A DNA stretch of 64,000 nt from Escherichia coli (GTDB lineage Bacteria > Pseudomonadota > Gammaproteobacteria > Enterobacterales > Enterobacteriaceae): NCBI RefSeq assembly GCF_024223415.1, contig NZ_CP100500.1. One strand, given 5' to 3'. The notes below the pieces were generated by a model. The model ran no database searches, was not told the origin of the DNA, and saw nothing but the letters and a program-made list of their open reading frames with translations. Each line of letters begins with the position of its first letter. Position 1 is the first letter of the stretch. This document shows, in pieces, positions 738 through 23,827 of the stretch. The translations under genes were made by a program, and so were the position numbers.

Positions 738-3050
738 ATGCCTCGCTTGTTAACCAAACGCGGCTGCTGGATAACGCTGGCAGCTGCGCCCTTTCTCCTT
801 TTTCTTGCAGCGTGGGGAGCAGATAAACTCTGGCCTCTACCGCTGCATGAAGTCAATCCCGCACGAGTGGTCGTGGCGCAGGATGGTACGCCGCTCTGGC
901 GCTTCGCCGATGCTGACGGCATCTGGCGTTATCCTGTAACAATCGAAGATGTTTCTCCACGTTACCTTGAAGCGCTGATCAATTATGAAGATCGCTGGTT
1001 CTGGAAGCATCCGGGGGTGAATCCATTCTCGGTGGCGCGCGCAGCATGGCAAGATCTCACTTCGGGACGGGTTATTTCCGGTGGCAGCACGCTCACTATG
1101 CAGGTTGCTCGTCTGCTTGATCCTCACCCCAAAACATTTGGCGGCAAAATTCGCCAGCTCTGGCGCGCGTTGCAACTGGAGTGGCATTTGTCTAAGCGTG
1201 AAATTCTGACCTTGTATCTTAACCGCGCTCCGTTTGGCGGTACGTTGCAGGGGATCGGTGCGGCAAGTTGGGCTTATCTCGGAAAGTCGCCTGCGAATTT
1301 AAGCTATTCCGAGGCGGCAATGCTGGCGGTTTTGCCGCAAGCGCCCAGCCGTCTTCGCCCGGATCGTTGGCCGGAGCGTGCCGAAGCCGCGCGTAATAAA
1401 GTGCTCGAACGGATGGCCGTGCAAGGTGTGTGGTCCCGTGAGCAGGTAAAAGAGTCAAGGGAAGAACCCATCTGGCTGGCACCCCGACAAATGCCGCAAC
1501 TTGCACCGCTGTTTTCGCGCATGATGCTCGGTAAAAGCAAAAGCGACAAAATCGTTACTACGCTGGATGCCGGTCTTCAACGACGTCTGGAAGAACTGGC
1601 GCAAAACTGGAAAGGACGTTTACCACCGCGCAGCTCACTGGCGATGATCGTGGTTGATCATACCGATATGCGTGTTCGCGGCTGGGTGGGATCGGTAGAT
1701 CTCAACGATGATTCACGCTTTGGTCATGTTGATATGGTCAATGCGATCCGATCGCCAGGGTCGGTGCTCAAACCGTTTGTTTACGGTCTGGCGCTGGATG
1801 AAGGCTTGATCCACCCGGCATCACTGCTGCAAGACGTCCCCCGGCGCACCGGTGATTATCGACCAGGTAACTTTGATAGCGGTTTTCATGGCCCGATCAG
1901 CATGAGCGAGGCGCTGGTGCGCTCGCTGAATTTACCTGCTGTGCAGGTACTGGAAGCCTATGGACCGAAACGGTTTGCGGCAAAGTTACGCAATGTTGGA
2001 TTGCCGTTATATTTGCCCAACGGTGCTGCGCCGAATCTTTCGCTCATTCTCGGCGGCGCTGGTGCAAAACTGGAAGATATGGCGGCAGCGTATACCGCGT
2101 TTGCTCGCCACGGCAAGGCAGGCAAATTGCGCTTACAGCCTGACGATCCGCTGCTTGAACGGCCTTTAATATCGTCGGGGGCTGCGTGGATCATTCGCCG
2201 GATTATGGCTGATGAAGCGCAACCCTTGCCGGATGGTGCCTTGCCGCGTGTCGCTCCACTGGCATGGAAAACGGGCACCAGCTATGGCTATCGTGACGCC
2301 TGGGCGATTGGGGTTAACGCTCGCTATGTCATTGGGATCTGGACTGGCAGACCGGACGGCACGCCCGTTGTTGGTCAGTTTGGTTTTGCCAGCGCCGTAC
2401 CATTGTTGAATCAGGTCAATAATATCTTACTGTCGCGCAGTGCTAATCTGCCGGAAGACCCGCGCCCGAACTCAGTCACTCGTGGCGTTATCTGCTGGCC
2501 GGGCGGACAGTCTTTGCCGGAAGGTGACGGTAACTGTCGCCGCCGCCTGGCAACCTGGCTGCTGGACGGGAGTCAGCCGCCAACTCTATTACTGCCGGAG
2601 CAGGAAGGCATTAATGGCATTCGTTTCCCCATCTGGCTGGATGAAAATGGCAAACGTGTTGCCGCTGATTGCCCGCAAGCGCGACAAGAAATGATAAATG
2701 TCTGGCCGCTACCGCTGGAACCCTGGTTGCCCGCATCAGAACGTCGCGCTGTGCGCTTACCACCGGCCTCGACAATTTGCCCGCCATACGGTCACGATGC
2801 CCAGCTCCCGCTGCAGCTGACAGGCGTTCGCGATGGCGAGATTATTAAACGTTTACCGGGCGCAGCGGAAGCGACTTTGCCGTTGCAATCAAGTGGAGGG
2901 GCAGGTGAACGCTGGTGGTTTCTGAATGGCGAACCGTTAACTGAACGCGGGCGCAACGTGACCCTGCATTTGACGGATAAAGGTGATTATCAATTGCTGG
3001 TGATGGATGACGTAGGGCAAATCGCGTCAGTACATTTTTCATTTCAGTGA
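738..3050 (+). CDS. pbpC: Penicillin-binding protein 1C (peptidoglycan glycosyltransferase)
   Basis: 770-aa ORF with ATG at 738 directly after the yfhM stop; length and sequence match PbpC. Confidence 0.9.
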   Translation: MPRLLTKRGCWITLAAAPFLLFLAAWGADKLWPLPLHEVNPARVVVAQDGTPLWRFADADGIWRYPVTIEDVSPRYLEALINYEDRWFWKHPGVNPFSVARAAWQDLTSGRVISGGSTLTMQVARLLDPHPKTFGGKIRQLWRALQLEWHLSKREILTLYLNRAPFGGTLQGIGAASWAYLGKSPANLSYSEAAMLAVLPQAPSRLRPDRWPERAEAARNKVLERMAVQGVWSREQVKESREEPIWLAPRQMPQLAPLFSRMMLGKSKSDKIVTTLDAGLQRRLEELAQNWKGRLPPRSSLAMIVVDHTDMRVRGWVGSVDLNDDSRFGHVDMVNAIRSPGSVLKPFVYGLALDEGLIHPASLLQDVPRRTGDYRPGNFDSGFHGPISMSEALVRSLNLPAVQVLEAYGPKRFAAKLRNVGLPLYLPNGAAPNLSLILGGAGAKLEDMAAAYTAFARHGKAGKLRLQPDDPLLERPLISSGAAWIIRRIMADEAQPLPDGALPRVAPLAWKTGTSYGYRDAWAIGVNARYVIGIWTGRPDGTPVVGQFGFASAVPLLNQVNNILLSRSANLPEDPRPNSVTRGVICWPGGQSLPEGDGNCRRRLATWLLDGSQPPTLLLPEQEGINGIRFPIWLDENGKRVAADCPQARQEMINVWPLPLEPWLPASERRAVRLPPASTICPPYGHDAQLPLQLTGVRDGEIIKRLPGAAEATLPLQSSGGAGERWWFLNGEPLTERGRNVTLHLTDKGDYQLLVMDDVGQIASVHFSFQ

Positions 3051-3144
3051 AATATACAAAATATTTATTAATCTAATTATGGTATTTATATTTGGAATGC
3101 ATTAATAATTTAATAATCTCACGTTTTTTTAAACGACTAATTAT

Positions 3145-3158
3145 TTGATTGTTATCAG
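3145..3158 (+). promoter_or_regulatory. Putative FNR binding site TTGAT-tgtt-ATCAg upstream of the DmsA-like operon
   Basis: 9 of 10 matches to the FNR consensus TTGATnnnnATCAA, centred about 62 nt upstream of the ATG at 3214 in an AT-rich intergenic region. Confidence 0.5.
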
Positions 3159-3213
3159 CATTGTTCTCGAATAAATACGTGAATATTTATTTTTTCATTT
3201 TCGGGAACGCAAG

Positions 3214-5595
3214 ATGGATACGCCAGACGAAAAGGAACGCATTACATTTCCGCAAGTATCACGACGTAGTTTTTTACAAGCGACTTCCGCGCTTATCACT
3301 TTGCCTTTTATTTCTTCTACCGCAAAGGCGCAATCCCCAGATGCGTCGCCAGAAGTTACAGCTCCAGTAGCTGATAAAGTCGTGCCCACCTGTAGCACAT
3401 TTGACTGCGGTGGTAAGTGCGATATTCGGGCGCATATGCGCGACGGCGTGGTGACGCAAATTACCACACTTCCCGATAACGAACTCGATTCACAAATGCC
3501 GATTATGCGCGCCTGTGTTCGTGGTCGCGGCTATCGTAAATTTGTTTATCATCCTGACCGTTTGAAATATCCGATGAAGCGGGTAGGTAAACGAGGGGAG
3601 GGAAGATTTGAGCGTATCTCATGGGATGAGGCGACGACCTTAATTGCCGATAAACTGAAAAGGATCACGCAACAATATGGCCCGGCTTCACGTTATGTCC
3701 ATGTCGGGACGGCTGTTTCTGGTGGAACATTTTCTGGCGATGCGATGGCGCGTCGGCTGTTAAATTTAACCGGTGGTTATCTTGAATATTATCACTCAGT
3801 TAGTCTGGGTAATACTGCGGCCGCCACGCCTTACACGTATGGCGTGGCGGCCAGCGGTAACTCGATGGATACTCTTCTGGATACCAAACTGGTGATCCTC
3901 TGGGGGCATAACCCAACGGAAACCATATTCGGTCACACCAATTACTATTTTCAAAAAATGAAGCAAAACGGTACACGTTTTATCGTGGTGGATCCGCGCT
4001 ATTCCGACACCGTATCTTCACTTGCCGATCAGTGGATCCCGCTGTTGCCGACCACGGACAATGCGTTGATGGACGCGATGATGTACGTCATTATCAGCGA
4101 GAATCTCCACGATAAGACATTTATCGACACATATATTCTCGGTTTTGATGAAAACTCTATGCCAGAAGGCGTACCAGCCAACGAATCGTTGGTTGCCTAC
4201 CTTTTTGGCGCAAAAGATGGGATACACAAAACGCCGGAATGGGCAGAAAAAATTACCCACGTTCCAGCACAATCCATTCGTCAACTGGCACGCGATTACG
4301 CCACTACAAAACCCGCAGCGTTGATTCAGGGATGGGGGCCACAGCGACATATTTGCGGCGAACGCACCGCCCGAGGTTCAACTTTACTGGCCTCGATTAC
4401 CGGTAACGTCGGCATCAAAGGTGGCTGGGCGGCAGGTTACGGCGGTAGTTCTAATCGTAAATTCTGCGTTGGACCAGATATGCCAGAAAATCCGGTACAA
4501 GCGAAAATCTCGATTATGAACTGGATGCAGGCGGCGGATGATGCTTCTAAAGTTACGCCGCAAGATGGGCTTAAAGGTGTCGATAAACTCGACAGTAATA
4601 TCCGCCTGCTGTTCTCACTGGCAGGTAATTATCTGGCGAACCAGAACCCGGACGTCCACCAGGCCGCGAAGCTCCTTGAAGACGAATCTAAAATAGAATT
4701 CATCGTACTCAGCGATCTGTTCATGACTCCGAGCGCGAAATATGCCGATGTGTTGCTGCCGGAAACCAGCTTTATGGAACGCTGGAATATCGGCGAAACA
4801 TGGGGAACTGCGAGCTATCTTATTCTGTCAGAAAAACTGATTGAGCCGGATTTTGAACGTCGCACCGATTATGACTGGTTGCGTGACGTGGCGAAAAAAC
4901 TGGGTGTCGAAGCCGAGTTCAGTCAAGGACGTGATGAGAAGCAATGGATCGAGCATATCTGGGAGCAAACTCGTCTGGCGATGCCGGATGAAAATTTGCC
5001 GGACTTCGCGACCCTGCAAAAAACACGTCGACATCTTTTCAAAAGCGCGCCGCACATCGCTTTCGAAGCAAATATTCGCGATCCGCAGAATAATCCTTTC
5101 CCGACGCCTTCCGGCAAAATTGAGATCTTCTCTAAGCGTCTTTTTGATATGCAAGATCCAGAAATTCCCGCGCTTTCGCACTATGTCCCTGCCTTTGAAG
5201 GGCCAGAAGATAAACTGACGGCGAAATACCCGCTGCAGCTCATCACCTGGAAAGGGAAAAACCGTGCTAATTCCACCCAGTATGCTAACCCGTGGCTGCA
5301 AGAAGTTCAGACGCAAAAACTCTGGCTGAATCCGCAAGATGCAAAACAGCGCGGGATTAGCGAAGGAGATAGCGTAAAAATTTATAACGATCGTGGTGTG
5401 AGCATTATCCCGGTGGAAATAACCCCCCGTATCATCCCTGGCGTAGTTGCTATGCAGGCGGGGGCATGGTGGCAACCGGATGCACAAGGTATCGATCGCG
5501 GAGGCTGTGCCAATGTACTGAGTTCGACCCGCATTACGGCGCTGGCGAAAGGGAATTCGCATCAAACAATGCTGGTGGAGGTTGAGAAAGCATGA
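3214..5595 (+). CDS. Tat-exported molybdopterin oxidoreductase catalytic subunit, DMSO reductase family (DmsA/YnfE-like), substrate unknown
   Basis: 793-aa ORF with twin-arginine motif SRRSFLQ near the N-terminus, then a CxxxxCxxxC...C cysteine cluster typical of DmsA-type FeS sites; stop overlaps the next start (ATGA at 5592-5595). Confidence 0.85.
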   Translation: MDTPDEKERITFPQVSRRSFLQATSALITLPFISSTAKAQSPDASPEVTAPVADKVVPTCSTFDCGGKCDIRAHMRDGVVTQITTLPDNELDSQMPIMRACVRGRGYRKFVYHPDRLKYPMKRVGKRGEGRFERISWDEATTLIADKLKRITQQYGPASRYVHVGTAVSGGTFSGDAMARRLLNLTGGYLEYYHSVSLGNTAAATPYTYGVAASGNSMDTLLDTKLVILWGHNPTETIFGHTNYYFQKMKQNGTRFIVVDPRYSDTVSSLADQWIPLLPTTDNALMDAMMYVIISENLHDKTFIDTYILGFDENSMPEGVPANESLVAYLFGAKDGIHKTPEWAEKITHVPAQSIRQLARDYATTKPAALIQGWGPQRHICGERTARGSTLLASITGNVGIKGGWAAGYGGSSNRKFCVGPDMPENPVQAKISIMNWMQAADDASKVTPQDGLKGVDKLDSNIRLLFSLAGNYLANQNPDVHQAAKLLEDESKIEFIVLSDLFMTPSAKYADVLLPETSFMERWNIGETWGTASYLILSEKLIEPDFERRTDYDWLRDVAKKLGVEAEFSQGRDEKQWIEHIWEQTRLAMPDENLPDFATLQKTRRHLFKSAPHIAFEANIRDPQNNPFPTPSGKIEIFSKRLFDMQDPEIPALSHYVPAFEGPEDKLTAKYPLQLITWKGKNRANSTQYANPWLQEVQTQKLWLNPQDAKQRGISEGDSVKIYNDRGVSIIPVEITPRIIPGVVAMQAGAWWQPDAQGIDRGGCANVLSSTRITALAKGNSHQTMLVEVEKA

Positions 5596-6221
5596 GCCAA
5601 TTTAAAGAATTTGCATCTGTCAGCGACAAACAATTAGGGTTCTTTATTGACTCTTCGCGTTGTTCGGGCTGTAAAGCGTGTCAGGTGGCCTGTAAAGACA
5701 AAAACAACCTTGAGGTTGGGCGACGTTTTCGCCGCGTGTATGAAGTGAACGGCGGTGGCTTCATCGCCACTGGAGAGGGCGGTGTGAGTCATAATGTCTT
5801 TGCTTATACCCTTTCTGTTTCCTGTAACCATTGCGCGGATCCGATCTGTACCAAAAATTGCCCGACGATAGCGATGCATAAGCGTCCCGGAGACGGCATT
5901 GTGCGCGTGAATACTGATAAGTGCGTCGGTTGCGGTTACTGCGCCTGGTCCTGTCCTTACGGCGCACCACAAATGAATGAGCAGACCGGGCAGATGTCGA
6001 AATGCGATTTCTGTATTGATCTGCAAGCTAAAGGAGAACAACCCATTTGCGTGGCAACGTGCCCGTTGGGGGCGATTAAGTTCGGCCCTATTGATGAGTT
6101 GCGTGAAAAGTATGGCGATGTCAGTGATGTGAAAGGTTTACCTGATTCGTCGATTACGCAGCCAAATCTGGTGATTAAACCGCATCAGGGCGCGGAAAAG
6201 GAGGCGTCACATCATGCATGA
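5592..6221 (+). CDS. Four-cluster 4Fe-4S ferredoxin electron-transfer subunit (DmsB-like)
   Basis: 209-aa ORF with several CxxCxxCxxxCP motifs; translationally coupled to both neighbours. Confidence 0.85.
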   Translation: MSQFKEFASVSDKQLGFFIDSSRCSGCKACQVACKDKNNLEVGRRFRRVYEVNGGGFIATGEGGVSHNVFAYTLSVSCNHCADPICTKNCPTIAMHKRPGDGIVRVNTDKCVGCGYCAWSCPYGAPQMNEQTGQMSKCDFCIDLQAKGEQPICVATCPLGAIKFGPIDELREKYGDVSDVKGLPDSSITQPNLVIKPHQGAEKEASHHA

Positions 6222-7035
6222 ATTACCGTTAATGGCTTTTACGCTGTTGTTACAGGCATCGGTCGGTATGACGTTGTGGCTGGCGTTTCTTCATCGTCAT
6301 ATTTTAATCACCTCCAGCGCCCGCCCGGTTATGCGGCCGCCATTACTGTTGGCTTTTTTGGCAGGTGCCGTAGGGTTACTAATTTCTACCTTACATCTGG
6401 GTTATCCACTTAATGCGATGCATGCGCTAAGCCACTTTTCCAGTTCATGGCTGAGTCGGGAAATTATCTTTGGTGCGCTGTATCTGGCGCTATTGGGTTT
6501 ATCCACATTACTGGTCATGTTACGCAAAGGCGGCTGGCAACTCCTGCTTATGCTAGCGGCAGTGGTCGGGATTGTTGATGTTTTCTGCATGGCGCAAGTT
6601 TACATCCATACGTCGATTATCACCTGGCAGCATTACAACACACTGATTATGTTCTTAGGTACAGTGGGAATTCTCGGTTCAGCGCTGGTAGCAGTGTTTC
6701 GTATTAGCGGAATTTTGCCGCAGATTGATGCCCTGCGTAATGGATGCGTGTTGGTGATCGCTCTCCTGGTTCTGTTGCGTTTGTTGGTTCAGCCGTTGTG
6801 GATAGGGGATTTAACGGCAAATGCGATGCAGATAGCCACATTGCCACATGCGCCATTAGCGATGCTGGGACAGTTAAAACCCATACTGACACTAAGCTGG
6901 GGAATTTCCGTCATTGGGATGATGTTCTTTGCTGTCGGTGGTTGTAAAAAGAATATCCCGGCGGCGTTATTCGGTAGCGTAATGCTAGTGGGGAGTGAAG
7001 TTATGCTGCGTTTTGTCTTTTTTAGTATCGGCTAA
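6214..7035 (+). CDS. Polytopic membrane anchor subunit (DmsC-like)
   Basis: 273-aa highly hydrophobic ORF, overlaps the upstream gene by 8 nt and the downstream gene by 1 nt (TAATG); position matches the DmsC role. Confidence 0.7.
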   Translation: MHELPLMAFTLLLQASVGMTLWLAFLHRHILITSSARPVMRPPLLLAFLAGAVGLLISTLHLGYPLNAMHALSHFSSSWLSREIIFGALYLALLGLSTLLVMLRKGGWQLLLMLAAVVGIVDVFCMAQVYIHTSIITWQHYNTLIMFLGTVGILGSALVAVFRISGILPQIDALRNGCVLVIALLVLLRLLVQPLWIGDLTANAMQIATLPHAPLAMLGQLKPILTLSWGISVIGMMFFAVGGCKKNIPAALFGSVMLVGSEVMLRFVFFSIG

Positions 7036-7889
7036 TGTTAAGTCATAACATAACGATTGGCGCGGAATGCGCGCGCCAACGCTTTCGTTTTGCAACATGT
7101 CATGCCTGTGTCGAGGCTTGCCCGGCACAGGCGCTAACGCTGACAGAAGAGGGCATAGCGGTCGACGCGGAACAATGTATTGAGTGTGCGGTTTGCCAGT
7201 TTATTTGTCCGCAAGAGGCTATTCGTGGCGTTAATTCCCCTTTACGTTATTTTCGCAATCACACCCTGGTCGCACCTTTCACCACTATTGCGCCGACGCT
7301 GGAAGAACTTTTGCTATGGCATAAAGAGCAGGGGATCACAGCGATCGCGATTGATCTGAGTCAGGCGAAGGCATGGGAGCGCGCATTATTGCTGTTAAAC
7401 GAACGCTTACGGCAATATGGCGAGGAAGGCTGGTCTGTGGTATCTCCACATACCAGTGAGGTGAATGTTTCCCGGCGTCGTTTGTTCCATGTGCAGCGTG
7501 CGGATGTTCAGATGATACAAATACAACCAGGATTACGTCGGTTACATTATTTTTGGCCCCAGATTAGTGATGCTCGCCCGATGATGGATCCTCAAAAGTG
7601 TCAGCTTTGCGGTGCATGCTGGCGGGCCTGCGAGCAACAGGTCTTTTCGCTTAACGAAGGCCATTTACAAATCAATGATGCCTTGTGTAACGGATGCCAA
7701 AATTGTATTGCTGTTTGTTTTCATCAGGCAATGACCGTTGAATTGACAATTCTACCTGCAAAAATTGTGAATCTTCATGCTAATCGCAAAGTCTGTAAAA
7801 CCTGTCAAAAATCCTTTCTTACTTTTCAGCAAAATGCGCAAAATTGTCTTTATTGCCAACGTCATCGCTATGGGATGAGAGCACCATAA
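7035..7889 (+). CDS. Cytoplasmic ferredoxin-like protein with four Cys clusters and a C-terminal CxxC...CxxC pair
   Basis: 284-aa ORF without signal peptide; motifs CHACVEACP, CIECAVCQFICP, CQLCGACWRAC, CNGCQNCIAVC and a terminal CKTC...CLYC; coupled to the anchor gene. Confidence 0.7.
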   Translation: MLSHNITIGAECARQRFRFATCHACVEACPAQALTLTEEGIAVDAEQCIECAVCQFICPQEAIRGVNSPLRYFRNHTLVAPFTTIAPTLEELLLWHKEQGITAIAIDLSQAKAWERALLLLNERLRQYGEEGWSVVSPHTSEVNVSRRRLFHVQRADVQMIQIQPGLRRLHYFWPQISDARPMMDPQKCQLCGACWRACEQQVFSLNEGHLQINDALCNGCQNCIAVCFHQAMTVELTILPAKIVNLHANRKVCKTCQKSFLTFQQNAQNCLYCQRHRYGMRAP

Positions 7890-8029
7890 AAGTCGAGTTG
7901 TTGCTAAAACTCATTTTATTTTAAAAAAATGTTACCTTCATCAATAGTCAACGGCCCTGTTGCTCATTATAATCCGCGCCATCTCGTACGCTGGTACAGA
8001 CAACAACAGAACAATTTACAGAGGTAAAA

Positions 8030-8461
8030 ATGGCTATTGAACGTACTTTTTCCATCATCAAACCGAACGCGGTAGCAAAAAACGTCATTGGTAATATCTT
8101 TGCGCGCTTTGAAGCTGCAGGGTTCAAAATTGTCGGCACCAAAATGCTGCACCTGACCGTTGAACAGGCACGTGGCTTTTATGCTGAACACGATGGAAAA
8201 CCGTTCTTTGATGGTCTGGTTGAATTCATGACCTCTGGCCCGATCGTGGTTTCCGTGCTGGAAGGTGAAAACGCCGTTCAGCGTCACCGCGATCTGCTGG
8301 GCGCGACCAATCCGGCAAACGCACTGGCCGGTACTCTGCGCGCTGATTACGCTGACAGCCTGACCGAAAACGGTACCCACGGTTCTGACTCCGTCGAATC
8401 TGCCGCTCGCGAAATCGCTTATTTCTTCGGCGAAGGCGAAGTGTGCCCGCGCACCCGTTAA
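8030..8461 (+). CDS. ndk: Nucleoside diphosphate kinase
   Basis: 143-aa ORF beginning [15 protein letters not shown], recognised as Ndk. Confidence 0.95.
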
Positions 8462-8610: not shown

Positions 8611-9765
8611 ATGTCTGAACAATTAGTCACACCTGAAAACGTCACCACCAAAGATGGAAAAATCAACCTGCTGGATCTCAATCGTCAGCAGATGCGGGAG
8701 TTTTTTAAAGATTTAGGTGAAAAACCCTTCCGCGCCGATCAGGTGATGAAGTGGATGTATCACTATTGCTGCGACAATTTTGATGAGATGACTGACATCA
8801 ACAAAGTGTTGCGCGGCAAGCTGAAAGAGGTGGCGGAAATCCGCGCACCGGAAGTGGTTGAAGAACAGCGTTCATCTGACGGCACCATTAAATGGGCGAT
8901 TGCCGTGGGTGACCAGCGTGTCGAAACGGTGTACATCCCGGAAGACGACCGCGCTACGCTCTGCGTCTCTTCGCAGGTGGGGTGTGCGCTGGAGTGTAAA
9001 TTCTGTTCCACCGCCCAGCAGGGCTTTAACCGCAACCTGCGGGTGTCGGAAATTATCGGCCAGGTGTGGCGTGCGGCGAAAATCGTCGGCGCAGCAAAAG
9101 TCACCGGTCAGCGCCCAATCACTAACGTAGTGATGATGGGCATGGGCGAGCCGCTGCTCAACCTGAACAACGTCGTTCCGGCGATGGAAATCATGCTTGA
9201 TGATTTCGGTTTTGGCCTGTCTAAACGTCGCGTGACGCTTTCCACTTCCGGTGTAGTTCCAGCGCTGGATAAACTGGGCGATATGATCGATGTTGCGCTG
9301 GCAATTTCCCTGCACGCGCCGAACGACGAAATTCGTGACGAAATTGTGCCGATCAACAAAAAGTACAATATCGAAACGTTCCTTGCTGCGGTGCGCCGTT
9401 ATCTGGAGAAATCCAACGCCAATCAGGGCCGAGTCACTATTGAATACGTGATGCTTGACCACGTTAACGACGGCACTGAACACGCTCACCAACTGGCGGA
9501 ACTGCTGAAAGATACGCCGTGTAAGATCAACCTGATCCCGTGGAACCCGTTCCCGGGCGCACCGTATGGACGCAGCTCGAACAGCCGTATCGACCGTTTC
9601 TCAAAAGTGCTGATGAGCTACGGTTTCACCACTATTGTGCGTAAAACGCGTGGTGATGATATCGATGCTGCCTGTGGTCAGTTGGCGGGCGATGTTATCG
9701 ACCGTACGAAACGTACCCTGCGTAAACGGATGCAGGGTGAAGCCATCGACATTAAAGCGGTCTGA
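8611..9765 (+). CDS. rlmN: 23S rRNA m2A2503 / tRNA m2A37 radical SAM methyltransferase
   Basis: 384-aa ORF recognised as RlmN (YfgB), with the CxxxCxxC radical SAM motif. Confidence 0.95.
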
Positions 9766-23813: not shown

Positions 23814-23827
23814 TTGATATATATCAA
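23814..23827 (+). promoter_or_regulatory. FNR consensus site TTGAT-atat-ATCAA upstream of pdeF
   Basis: 10 of 10 match to TTGATnnnnATCAA, about 135 nt upstream of the pdeF ATG. Confidence 0.55.

Follow-up and report, generated by a model that had tools for sequence, protein, structure and literature searches.

A four-gene operon between pbpC and ndk in Escherichia coli: a predicted DmsABC-type molybdoenzyme of the Salmonella STM2530-STM2527 lineage and a putative cytoplasmic accessory polyferredoxin

We describe here four genes that are located between pbpC and ndk in Escherichia coli, in a stretch of 64,000 nucleotides from contig NZ_CP100500.1 (NCBI RefSeq assembly GCF_024223415.1), referred to below as the window. 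The genes, which we call A, B, C and D, are same-strand, translationally coupled open reading frames (ORFs) that occupy positions 3214-7889: A and B share an ATGA overlap at 5592-5595, B and C overlap by 8 nt at 6214-6221, and C and D are joined through a TAATG at 7033-7037. The queried interval is 100% identical to E. coli strain NCTC10444. The four genes are orthologous to Salmonella STM2530-STM2527, and we consider it reasonably probable that they form an FNR-activated operon for a respiratory or redox enzyme of DmsABC architecture together with a dedicated cytoplasmic accessory protein. The genes, and the features within and upstream of them that bear on this reading, are the following (Tat, twin-arginine translocation; Mo-bisPGD, molybdenum bis(pyranopterin guanine dinucleotide) cofactor):

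3145..3158, + strand: FNR-type box TTGATtgttATCAg, matching 9/10 consensus positions
3214-5595, + strand: gene A, 793 aa, predicted catalytic Mo-bisPGD subunit
3214..3330, + strand: twin-arginine signal peptide of A (S16-R-R-S-F-L-Q, hydrophobic region, A37-K-A39)
3391..3516, + strand: FS0 [4Fe-4S] ligand motif of A (C60-x4-C65-x3-C69 ... C101)
3802..3804, + strand: codon of Ser197 of A, the predicted molybdenum ligand, aligned with DmsA Ser205 (Ser176 in the old numbering)
5592-6221, + strand: gene B, 209 aa, predicted four-cluster electron-transfer subunit
6214-7035, + strand: gene C, 273 aa, predicted haem-less membrane anchor and quinol-oxidising subunit
7035-7889, + strand: gene D, 284 aa, predicted cytoplasmic polyferredoxin
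7470..7487, + strand: internal twin-arginine-like motif of D (S146-R-R-R-L-F151), in a disordered linker

The initial annotation, made from the sequence alone, had described four tightly coupled genes that K-12 does not carry, encoding a Tat-signal molybdopterin oxidoreductase with an N-terminal Cys cluster, a four-cluster ferredoxin, a membrane anchor and an additional cytoplasmic ferredoxin-like protein, with no DmsD/TorD-like chaperone gene among them: the overlaps that it gave are exact on the sequence, the absence from K-12 and the four protein assignments agree with the comparisons presented below, and no gene of the TorD/DmsD family was found in profile searches of the operon. In RefSeq, A and B are labelled as subunits of the DMSO (dimethyl sulfoxide)/selenate reductase family, C as a member of the DMSO reductase anchor family and D as a 4Fe-4S dicluster protein; a comparison with PHROGs returned matches to DmsA and to ferredoxin, and nothing further. 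All four are real genes and not chance ORFs: within Escherichia they are under purifying selection, with ratios of nonsynonymous to synonymous substitution (dN/dS) of 0-0.17 in most comparisons, and the value of 0.42 that is obtained for D against O157 comes from very few substitutions.

The catalytic subunit is matched by the NCBIfam model of the DmsA/YnfE subfamily (TIGR02166) with 1124.9 bits against a cut-off of 777.7, over residues 15-793 of 793, whereas its scores lie below the cut-offs of the models that are specific for DmsA (NF011566, 706 of 1600 bits), YnfF (NF041884, 693 of 1650 bits) and YnfE (NF041885, 670 of 1675 bits); its identity to K-12 DmsA, YnfE and YnfF is 44, 42 and 43%, respectively. 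A is a predicted Tat-exported Mo-bisPGD subunit of the DmsA/YnfE subfamily, placed by these scores outside the DmsA, YnfE and YnfF clades, and its location, gene order and FS0 motif make it the ortholog of Salmonella STM2530/STM14_3103 (“Psr1A”). The twin-arginine motif SRRSFLQ corresponds to residues 16-22, the SRR and LPF positions of the signal peptide being kept in DmsA, YnfE, YnfF and the orthologs, and the site of signal cleavage is a putative one. The FS0 segment, TCSTFDCGGKCDIRAH, is invariant in the 11 orthologs with a recovered N-terminus, and its Cx4Cx3C spacing differs from the Cx3Cx3C of K-12 DmsA, YnfE and YnfF, whose Cx3Cx3C...C arrangement we take to be type II. The column of Ser197 is invariant in the alignment of A, its orthologs and DmsA/YnfE/YnfF; from the ligand Ser on, every ortholog with a recovered N-terminus reads SLGN or SMGN, against SSAQ or STAQ in DmsA/YnfE/YnfF, and the clade of A carries specific loop deletions near the active-site loops. 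The dN/dS of A is 0.04-0.13 in the comparisons within Escherichia. In one Citrobacter-like metagenome contig (L005 5167-7561), gene A is broken into ORFs of 236 and 545 aa, owing either to pseudogenisation or to an error of assembly.

Gene B scores 265.6 bits against the DmsB equivalog model TIGR02951 (cut-off 214.1), is 58% identical to DmsB/YnfG and has 16 Cys in four ferredoxin-type groups (24/27/30/34, 78/81/86/90, 111/114/117/121 and 138/141/153/157); it is assigned by this match as a DmsB equivalog. Gene C is matched over residues 1-270 by the Pfam family DmsC (PF04976, E 1.5e-23), with no NCBIfam model matching it, and is 26% identical to K-12 DmsC; its approximately eight hydrophobic segments are consistent with the eight-helix DmsC, and its residues H61 and E83 correspond to His65 and Glu87 of DmsC, i.e. 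the residues of the quinol site are kept. In DmsC, His65 and Glu87 are the residues of menaquinol oxidation; the quinol site is on the periplasmic side, and anchors of the DmsC type are without haem. By the DmsABC paradigm, A, B and C would form a periplasm-facing, menaquinol-oxidising, haem-less three-subunit reductase.

Gene D encodes two ferredoxin domains of the 2x[4Fe-4S] type, an alpha/beta middle domain and a C-terminal CxxC...CxxC knuckle; neither a signal peptide nor a hydrophobic segment was found in its sequence, and its profile searches were matched by generic Fer4 models alone. In an alignment of 66 family members of 22-71% identity, 20 Cys are invariant: they form the groups C12...C22xxC25xxxC29P, C48xxC51xxC54xxxC58P, C189xxC192xxC195xxxC199 and C218xxC221xxC224xxxC228, and the knuckle C254xxC257...C271xxC274. 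The AlphaFold model of D (predicted local distance difference test, pLDDT, 83; predicted template modelling score, pTM, 0.79) consists, in order, of a ferredoxin domain, the alpha/beta domain (residues 66-140), which carries an invariant ELLxWH, a disordered linker (residues 142-154, pLDDT < 50), the second ferredoxin domain and a beta-ribbon; the middle domain is, as modelled, a fold without a known relative. The twin-arginine-like motif is located in the linker: in an alignment of 21 sequences, R147 is invariant and R148 is at least 90% conserved, the consensus over the 66 sequences is SRRxL, and the distant D-like proteins of loci L025, L027 and the Bacillus-type L026 have SRRSLL, SRRALF and SKREFL, respectively.

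A search of 1.84 billion representatives with a hidden Markov model of D returned 81 proteins at E<=1e-30, of which approximately 14 are close and approximately 50 are full-length but more distant members (283-311 aa). According to structure and cluster look-ups, the family occurs in many Enterobacterales, Gallibacterium, Uliginosibacterium and Bacillaceae, and everywhere its members are named “ferredoxin” or “4Fe-4S binding protein”. The protein from Gallibacterium, a member of the Pasteurellaceae, matches the model of D with a template modelling score of 0.69; a word-indexed profile search with the D family returned no Pasteurellaceae. Two database entries are recorded here as they stand: D of O157:H7 EDL933 is annotated at 192 aa (AFDB Q8XAA2), and Cronobacter condimenti has a 560-aa apparent C-D fusion (AFDB K8A6I6), possibly the product of a frameshift error where the stop and start codons overlap.

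Every genomic context of D that was read is an operon of the DmsABC/Psr type; at least four different neighbourhoods have the order A-B-C-D. In one group of Enterobacterales contigs, D is succeeded by a fifth gene, a DmsD equivalog (L010, 8874-9476; L011, 7055-7657) that scores 176 bits (cut-off 162) and is 40% identical to K-12 DmsD; in L008 (approximately 8870-9550), the same position after D is also occupied by a DmsD equivalog, broken by Ns. L025 (5750-12728) has a distant D-like gene followed by a gene for a 446-aa radical S-adenosylmethionine (radical-SAM) protein of no specific NCBIfam family, a TorD-like chaperone gene and a DmsABC-like trio; the Bacillus-type L026 (3022-9121) has a molybdenum subunit with an Hx3Cx3C FS0, an Fe-S subunit, an NrfD-type anchor, a TorD-like chaperone, a D-like protein and TatA. 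Three accounts of D were set aside. As a substitute for DmsD it is contradicted by the co-occurrence of the DmsD equivalog with D in L010 and L011, and it has no match to the Nitrate_red_del/TorD-DmsD domain (PF02613). As a homolog of NapF (TIGR00402) it is contradicted by hhalign, whose alignment extends over only 47 columns in a single ferredoxin half-domain; napF is also missing from the 25 best of the 63 generic Fe-S matches of D. As a protein tied to the Cx4C FS0 it is contradicted by L025 and L026, where its partners have Cx3Cx3C and Hx3Cx3C.

The evidence on the regulation of the operon concerns the FNR-type box TTGATtgttATCAg, centred 62 nt upstream of the start codon of A. The FNR pattern by itself is not significant in the window, which has 4 matches against 2.45 expected, and so the case rests on conserved position: of 12 orthologous loci, 10 have a box with at most two mismatches 57-62 nt upstream of the start of A, the boxes of Salmonella and Enterobacter being perfect. 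Because the position is conserved, and because the orthologous genes of Salmonella are reported to be among the most FNR-activated loci (PMC12636705), a class II FNR promoter is likely at the E. coli operon. A perfect FNR consensus, TTGATATATATCAA, is present elsewhere in the window, at 23814-23827. In the leader (3051..3213), no Rfam match was obtained at E<=1, on which account a molybdenum cofactor riboswitch, or any other riboswitch, was dismissed there.

The surroundings of the operon, with the junctions of the presence/absence polymorphism, are as follows:

66-737: tail of yfhM, upstream of pbpC
738-3050: pbpC, the upstream neighbour of the operon
3027..3050, + strand: final eight codons of pbpC; left junction of the polymorphism
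3051..3213, + strand: AT-rich promoter region of the operon, not in K-12
7898..8029, + strand: region upstream of ndk in common with K-12, 100% identical to K-12 DH1
8030-8461: ndk, the downstream neighbour, followed by rlmN, rodZ and ispG

In K-12 (strain DH1), pbpC is followed by a 148-bp spacer and ndk, the four genes are absent, and 7898-8029 alone within the interval has a match. On the left, the last eight codons of pbpC are 76.5% identical to those of DH1, against 98.5% over the remainder of the gene, and the C-terminal tail of the protein reads IASVHFSFQ* in the window and IATVKFVMQ* in K-12; the promoter region that follows has a GC content of approximately 0.40, against 0.55-0.58 in pbpC, and has no K-12 match. 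On the right, the junction is at 7897/7898, 8 nt past the stop codon of D, and a sigma-70-like site with 10/12 matches is present upstream of ndk, at 7945-7973. A 17-nt direct repeat of 82% identity, located at the end of pbpC (3035-3051, TTTTTCATTTCAGTGAA) and just before the start of A (3191-3207, TTTTTCATTTTCGGGAA), is probably due to chance.

The closest known system is that of Salmonella, STM2530-STM2527 (STM14_3103-3100, i.e. “Psr1ABC” and an unnamed fourth gene), which shares the four-gene order and the pbpC-ndk slot; our comparison has been made on loci of subsp. arizonae and diarizonae, the genes of S. Typhimurium being known to us through papers. A and B are 83-84% and 86-87% identical between the two systems, which also share the Cx4Cx3C FS0, the Ser ligand and an FNR box approximately 60 nt upstream, while C (51%) and D (38-40%) are far more diverged; the A subunits of both have approximately 43-44% identity to E. 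coli DmsA. PMC12636705 draws attention to C4XC3XC as the motif of the Psr1A clade, and the window operon has the marks of the Psr1 clade: this FS0, the pbpC-ndk synteny, the four-gene operon (described for Salmonella in bioRxiv 10.1101/2022.11.29.517730) and the FNR site. The operon is, in this comparison, the E. coli member of a known, poorly understood enzyme lineage and not a new kind of system.

E. coli DmsABC is alike in its three-subunit architecture, the Tat signal of A, the Ser molybdenum ligand, the 16-Cys B, the FNR-type promoter and the haem-less anchor of approximately eight segments with a His/Glu quinol site; it is unlike the window operon in its FS0 (Cx3C against Cx4C), in the neighbours of the molybdenum ligand, in the loops that are deleted in A, in the identity of A (44%) and C (26%) and in lacking gene D, and it respires DMSO, which the Salmonella ortholog of the window operon does not support. 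The selenate reductases E. coli YnfEFGH-DmsD and Enterobacter cloacae SrnABCD, the latter newly identified, also belong to the TIGR02166 subfamily, and their operons, of four or five genes, likewise encode subunits of the A, B and C types, but their accessory gene is the DmsD chaperone instead of a polyferredoxin; in SrnABCD the signal is SRRTLVK and the fourth gene is 69% identical to DmsD. NapF resembles D as a cytoplasmic multi-[4Fe-4S] protein encoded together with a Tat-exported Mo-bisPGD enzyme, and both have a non-exporting twin-arginine-like motif, N-terminal SRRGIL in NapF and internal SRRRLF in D; NapF has 164 aa, whereas D has 284 aa, with an extra alpha/beta domain and the C-terminal 4-Cys knuckle. 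The assembly of Fe-S clusters in NapA is reported to require NapF. By this comparison D would be a functional analogue of NapF at best, and not a member of its family. In Haemophilus influenzae dmsABCDE, compared here by description, a DmsABC operon is accompanied by DmsD and by a gene for an Fe-S protein that is read as a maturation factor, “DmsE” being described as a putative NapF-like chaperone; this arrangement parallels the ABCD plus DmsD of L010 and L011, although H. influenzae has a catalytic subunit that is described as a DmsA and not as one of the Psr1A type.

The mechanism that we propose would begin with anaerobiosis, upon which FNR would switch on transcription of the operon. The precursor of A would receive its FS0 cluster and Mo-bisPGD in the cytoplasm and pair with B, and the pair would be exported by Tat and held at the periplasmic face of the membrane by C, with DmsD being supplied in trans from the ynf operon. 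Menaquinol would be oxidised by C at the His61/Glu83 site, and electrons would pass, as in the DmsABC paradigm, through the four clusters of B and the FS0 of A to the molybdenum centre and a periplasmic oxo-substrate. D would remain in the cytoplasm and is probably, by analogy with NapF and DmsE, an Fe-S maturation or proofreading factor that acts on A-B before export, where its disordered twin-arginine-like motif may be a handle for DmsD or for the Tat receptor. The electron path, the function of D, the nature of the substrate and the FNR control in E. coli are the parts of this scheme that we infer. Regarding the substrate, DMSO-dependent growth under anaerobic conditions was not rescued by STM2530 in trans (bioRxiv 10.1101/2022.11.29.517730), and a deletion strain respires DMSO and methionine sulfoxide normally (PMC12636705, a 2025 Research Square preprint), for which reasons the enzyme is not regarded as a DMSO reductase; we judge the substrate to be neither DMSO nor methionine sulfoxide, and to be a specific oxyanion or an S- or N-oxide rather than sulfate.

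Several points weigh against this scheme. No recognisable FNR box is present upstream of A in L008 and L010. The maturation role of D stands on analogy and gene neighbourhood, since the similarity to NapF spans the 47 ferredoxin columns mentioned above, and the translational coupling of C and D in Enterobacterales fits a stoichiometric structural partner as well. In Salmonella, complementation with STM14_3103-3101, i.e. A-B-C, reportedly worked (PMC12636705), so that D would not be strictly required under those conditions. Sulfate reduction is the sole published activity claim for the ortholog (PMC12636705), and it is discounted here on thermodynamics and not on data. Finally, in the literature we found no experiment on the E. 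coli genes, nor on gene D in any organism; a 2025 survey of the S- and N-oxide reductases of E. coli, conducted on a uropathogenic strain, counts seven enzymes and does not mention O157 in its text.

The sulfate claim comes from PMC12636705, which renames the gene psr1A and proposes for Psr1, Psr2 and Psr3 a molybdenum-independent reduction of sulfate to sulfite, with FS0 as its site; applied to the window, the enzyme would be a periplasmic sulfate reductase, Psr1ABC, working independently of molybdenum at the FS0 of A and feeding sulfur assimilation, a reading that we hold to be distinctly unlikely. It is favoured by the reports that membranes without all four dmsA paralogs lose benzyl-viologen:sulfate activity, single paralogs being intermediate, and that Ser-to-Gly variants of Psr1A, Psr2A and Psr3A stay active (PMC12636705), as well as by the presence in A of the C4XC3XC of the Psr1A clade. 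However, the preprint has not been peer-reviewed, its electron paramagnetic resonance (EPR), moa deletion, deltaAsn66 and R105A work concerns Psr3, a YnfE-type enzyme, and not Psr1, and STM14_3103 gave a smaller fitness contribution than the other paralogs (PMC12636705). The conservation of the molybdenum-ligand Ser and of the molybdopterin body of A (dN/dS as above; 77-89% identity) would also be odd if molybdenum were unused. The standard potentials are approximately -516 mV for SO4(2-)/HSO3(-), -74 mV for menaquinone and -360 mV for benzyl viologen; because sulfate/bisulfite lies so far below menaquinone, quinol-driven sulfate reduction is thermodynamically implausible, the reduction of unactivated sulfate by quinol being uphill by approximately +85 kJ/mol. 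We also consider it unlikely that the operon is a redundant isoenzyme of DmsABC/YnfEFGH, i.e. a broad reductase of S- and N-oxides or of selenate and tellurate that serves under other expression conditions. The membership of A in the DmsA/YnfE subfamily, the shared architecture, the Ser ligand, the DmsB equivalog and the DmsC quinol-site residues all agree with such a role, and the authors of 10.1101/2022.11.29.517730 allow that their negative result may stem from a gene that was not expressed or from another preferred substrate; yet the failed rescue by STM2530 and the normal respiration of DMSO and methionine sulfoxide by deletion strains speak against it, as do the SLGN in place of SSAQ/STAQ, the clade-specific deletions near the active-site loops and scores that do not reach half of the DmsA, YnfE and YnfF cut-offs. 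Identity with the selenate reductase Srn of E. cloacae was dismissed, because Srn is of the YnfE type, with a DmsD-like fourth gene, and does not belong to the family of A. Concerning D, the idea that it docks on C from the cytoplasmic side, as a structural or electron-input subunit that links the complex to a cytoplasmic redox partner, would account for the TAATG coupling to C in E. coli, Citrobacter and other loci, for the parallel fast divergence of C (41-62% identity) and D (32-55%) relative to A and B (77-89%), for the fusion annotated in C. condimenti and for four classical ferredoxin-type clusters that resemble an electron wire; we find it very unlikely, given that a haem-less anchor with its quinol site on the periplasmic side offers no electron path across the membrane, that in distant operons D stands apart from the anchor and beside chaperone, radical-SAM or TatA genes, that the fusion may be artefactual and that A-B-C complemented without D in Salmonella.

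The history of the locus can be read from its distribution and synteny. With the island interior as the query, the operon was found in 380 of 5426 complete E. coli genomes (approximately 7%), always chromosomal and in single copy; most carriers belong to O157:H7 and O55:H7, the remainder being scattered isolates from livestock and humans. A-B-C-D is also located at pbpC-ndk in Salmonella enterica subsp. arizonae and diarizonae, two other Escherichia species, Citrobacter freundii, Pseudocitrobacter, an Enterobacter species, Lelliottia and Huaxiibacter, so that the slot is shared by at least seven genera with unchanged gene order; in Enterobacillus, Chimaeribacter and several metagenomic contigs of other Enterobacterales, the block is located elsewhere. 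The orthologs are 77-89% (A), 81-89% (B), 41-62% (C) and 32-55% (D) identical to the proteins of the window. At the DNA level, A and B are 79% identical in Citrobacter, against 77-78% for the flanking yfhM and pbpC, and 76.5% in Salmonella, against 74.5-76.5% for the same flanks. The initial annotation had suggested homologous, uncharacterised loci at this position in Salmonella and pathogenic E. coli: the loci are there, in Salmonella and in O157:H7, but “uncharacterised” is only partly apt, two preprints already addressing the Salmonella ortholog.

The same annotation had taken the genes to be inserted between pbpC and ndk, and with regard to their location this is right; the direction that “inserted” implies is probably wrong, in view of the slot shared across genera, the flank-like divergence and the lack of a mobility signature. 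That a minority of E. coli acquired the four genes horizontally, as an island in the pbpC-ndk spacer, is, in our opinion, rather doubtful, even though the patchy presence, the AT-rich spacers and the locally diverged end of pbpC are what such an island would leave. In Escherichia sp. E1V33 (L014 2703-9852), the four island genes differ from those of the window by a synonymous divergence of 0.02-0.09, against 0.31 for pbpC; this contrast, a sign of lateral exchange within the genus, implies that Escherichia lineages have recently exchanged the island by recombination. Against acquisition stand the constant position and order, the ordinary GC content of the coding part (0.48-0.52) and the absence from the locus of any insertion sequence (IS), integrase, tRNA or flanking repeat; the repeats that were detected are short and weak, and a mobile-element origin was dismissed on these grounds. 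One strain, E. coli ZF8-1 (NZ_CP178597.1 1271118-1272429), has approximately 11% of the island left, with a fragment of D beside an IS1A transposase, and looks like an IS1-mediated deletion in progress, i.e. loss. Since one slot is shared by at least seven genera and the island diverges like its flanks, we find it more likely that the locus is ancestral to Enterobacteriaceae at pbpC-ndk and was lost by most E. coli, with the island being occasionally re-exchanged by homologous recombination. The 2022 preprint on Salmonella (10.1101/2022.11.29.517730) suggests that this genus gained the operon after splitting from Escherichia, which the synteny contradicts.

Enterohaemorrhagic E. coli of O157:H7 and O55:H7 retain a strongly conserved, putatively anaerobically controlled respiratory-type enzyme that K-12 does not have. 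The Salmonella ortholog is frameshifted in Typhi and Paratyphi A (10.1101/2022.11.29.517730); the retention in O157:H7 and O55:H7, together with pseudogenes in these extraintestinal serovars, suggests that the enzyme serves in the gut or in animal reservoirs. Its substrate is contested, with a sulfate claim that conflicts with basic thermodynamics, and the E. coli operon provides a second genetically tractable system for it. The fourth gene was passed over in both Salmonella studies, and its unnamed, broadly distributed family is tied to molybdoenzyme operons. As a tentative possibility, D may found an unrecognised and widespread family of cytoplasmic Fe-S proteins, with members in Enterobacterales, Pasteurellaceae, Betaproteobacteria and Bacillaceae, for the biogenesis of Tat-exported molybdoenzymes of the DmsABC/Psr type, in which SRRxLF would be a decoy or handle for DmsD/TorD or TatBC. 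Separately, the Cx4Cx3C enzyme may have a substrate outside the known set of S- and N-oxides and selenate. If the reading of D were true, the SRRxLF motif of D would couple cluster insertion or redox proofreading to export, and the D family could reveal a missing step of Fe-S/Tat maturation.

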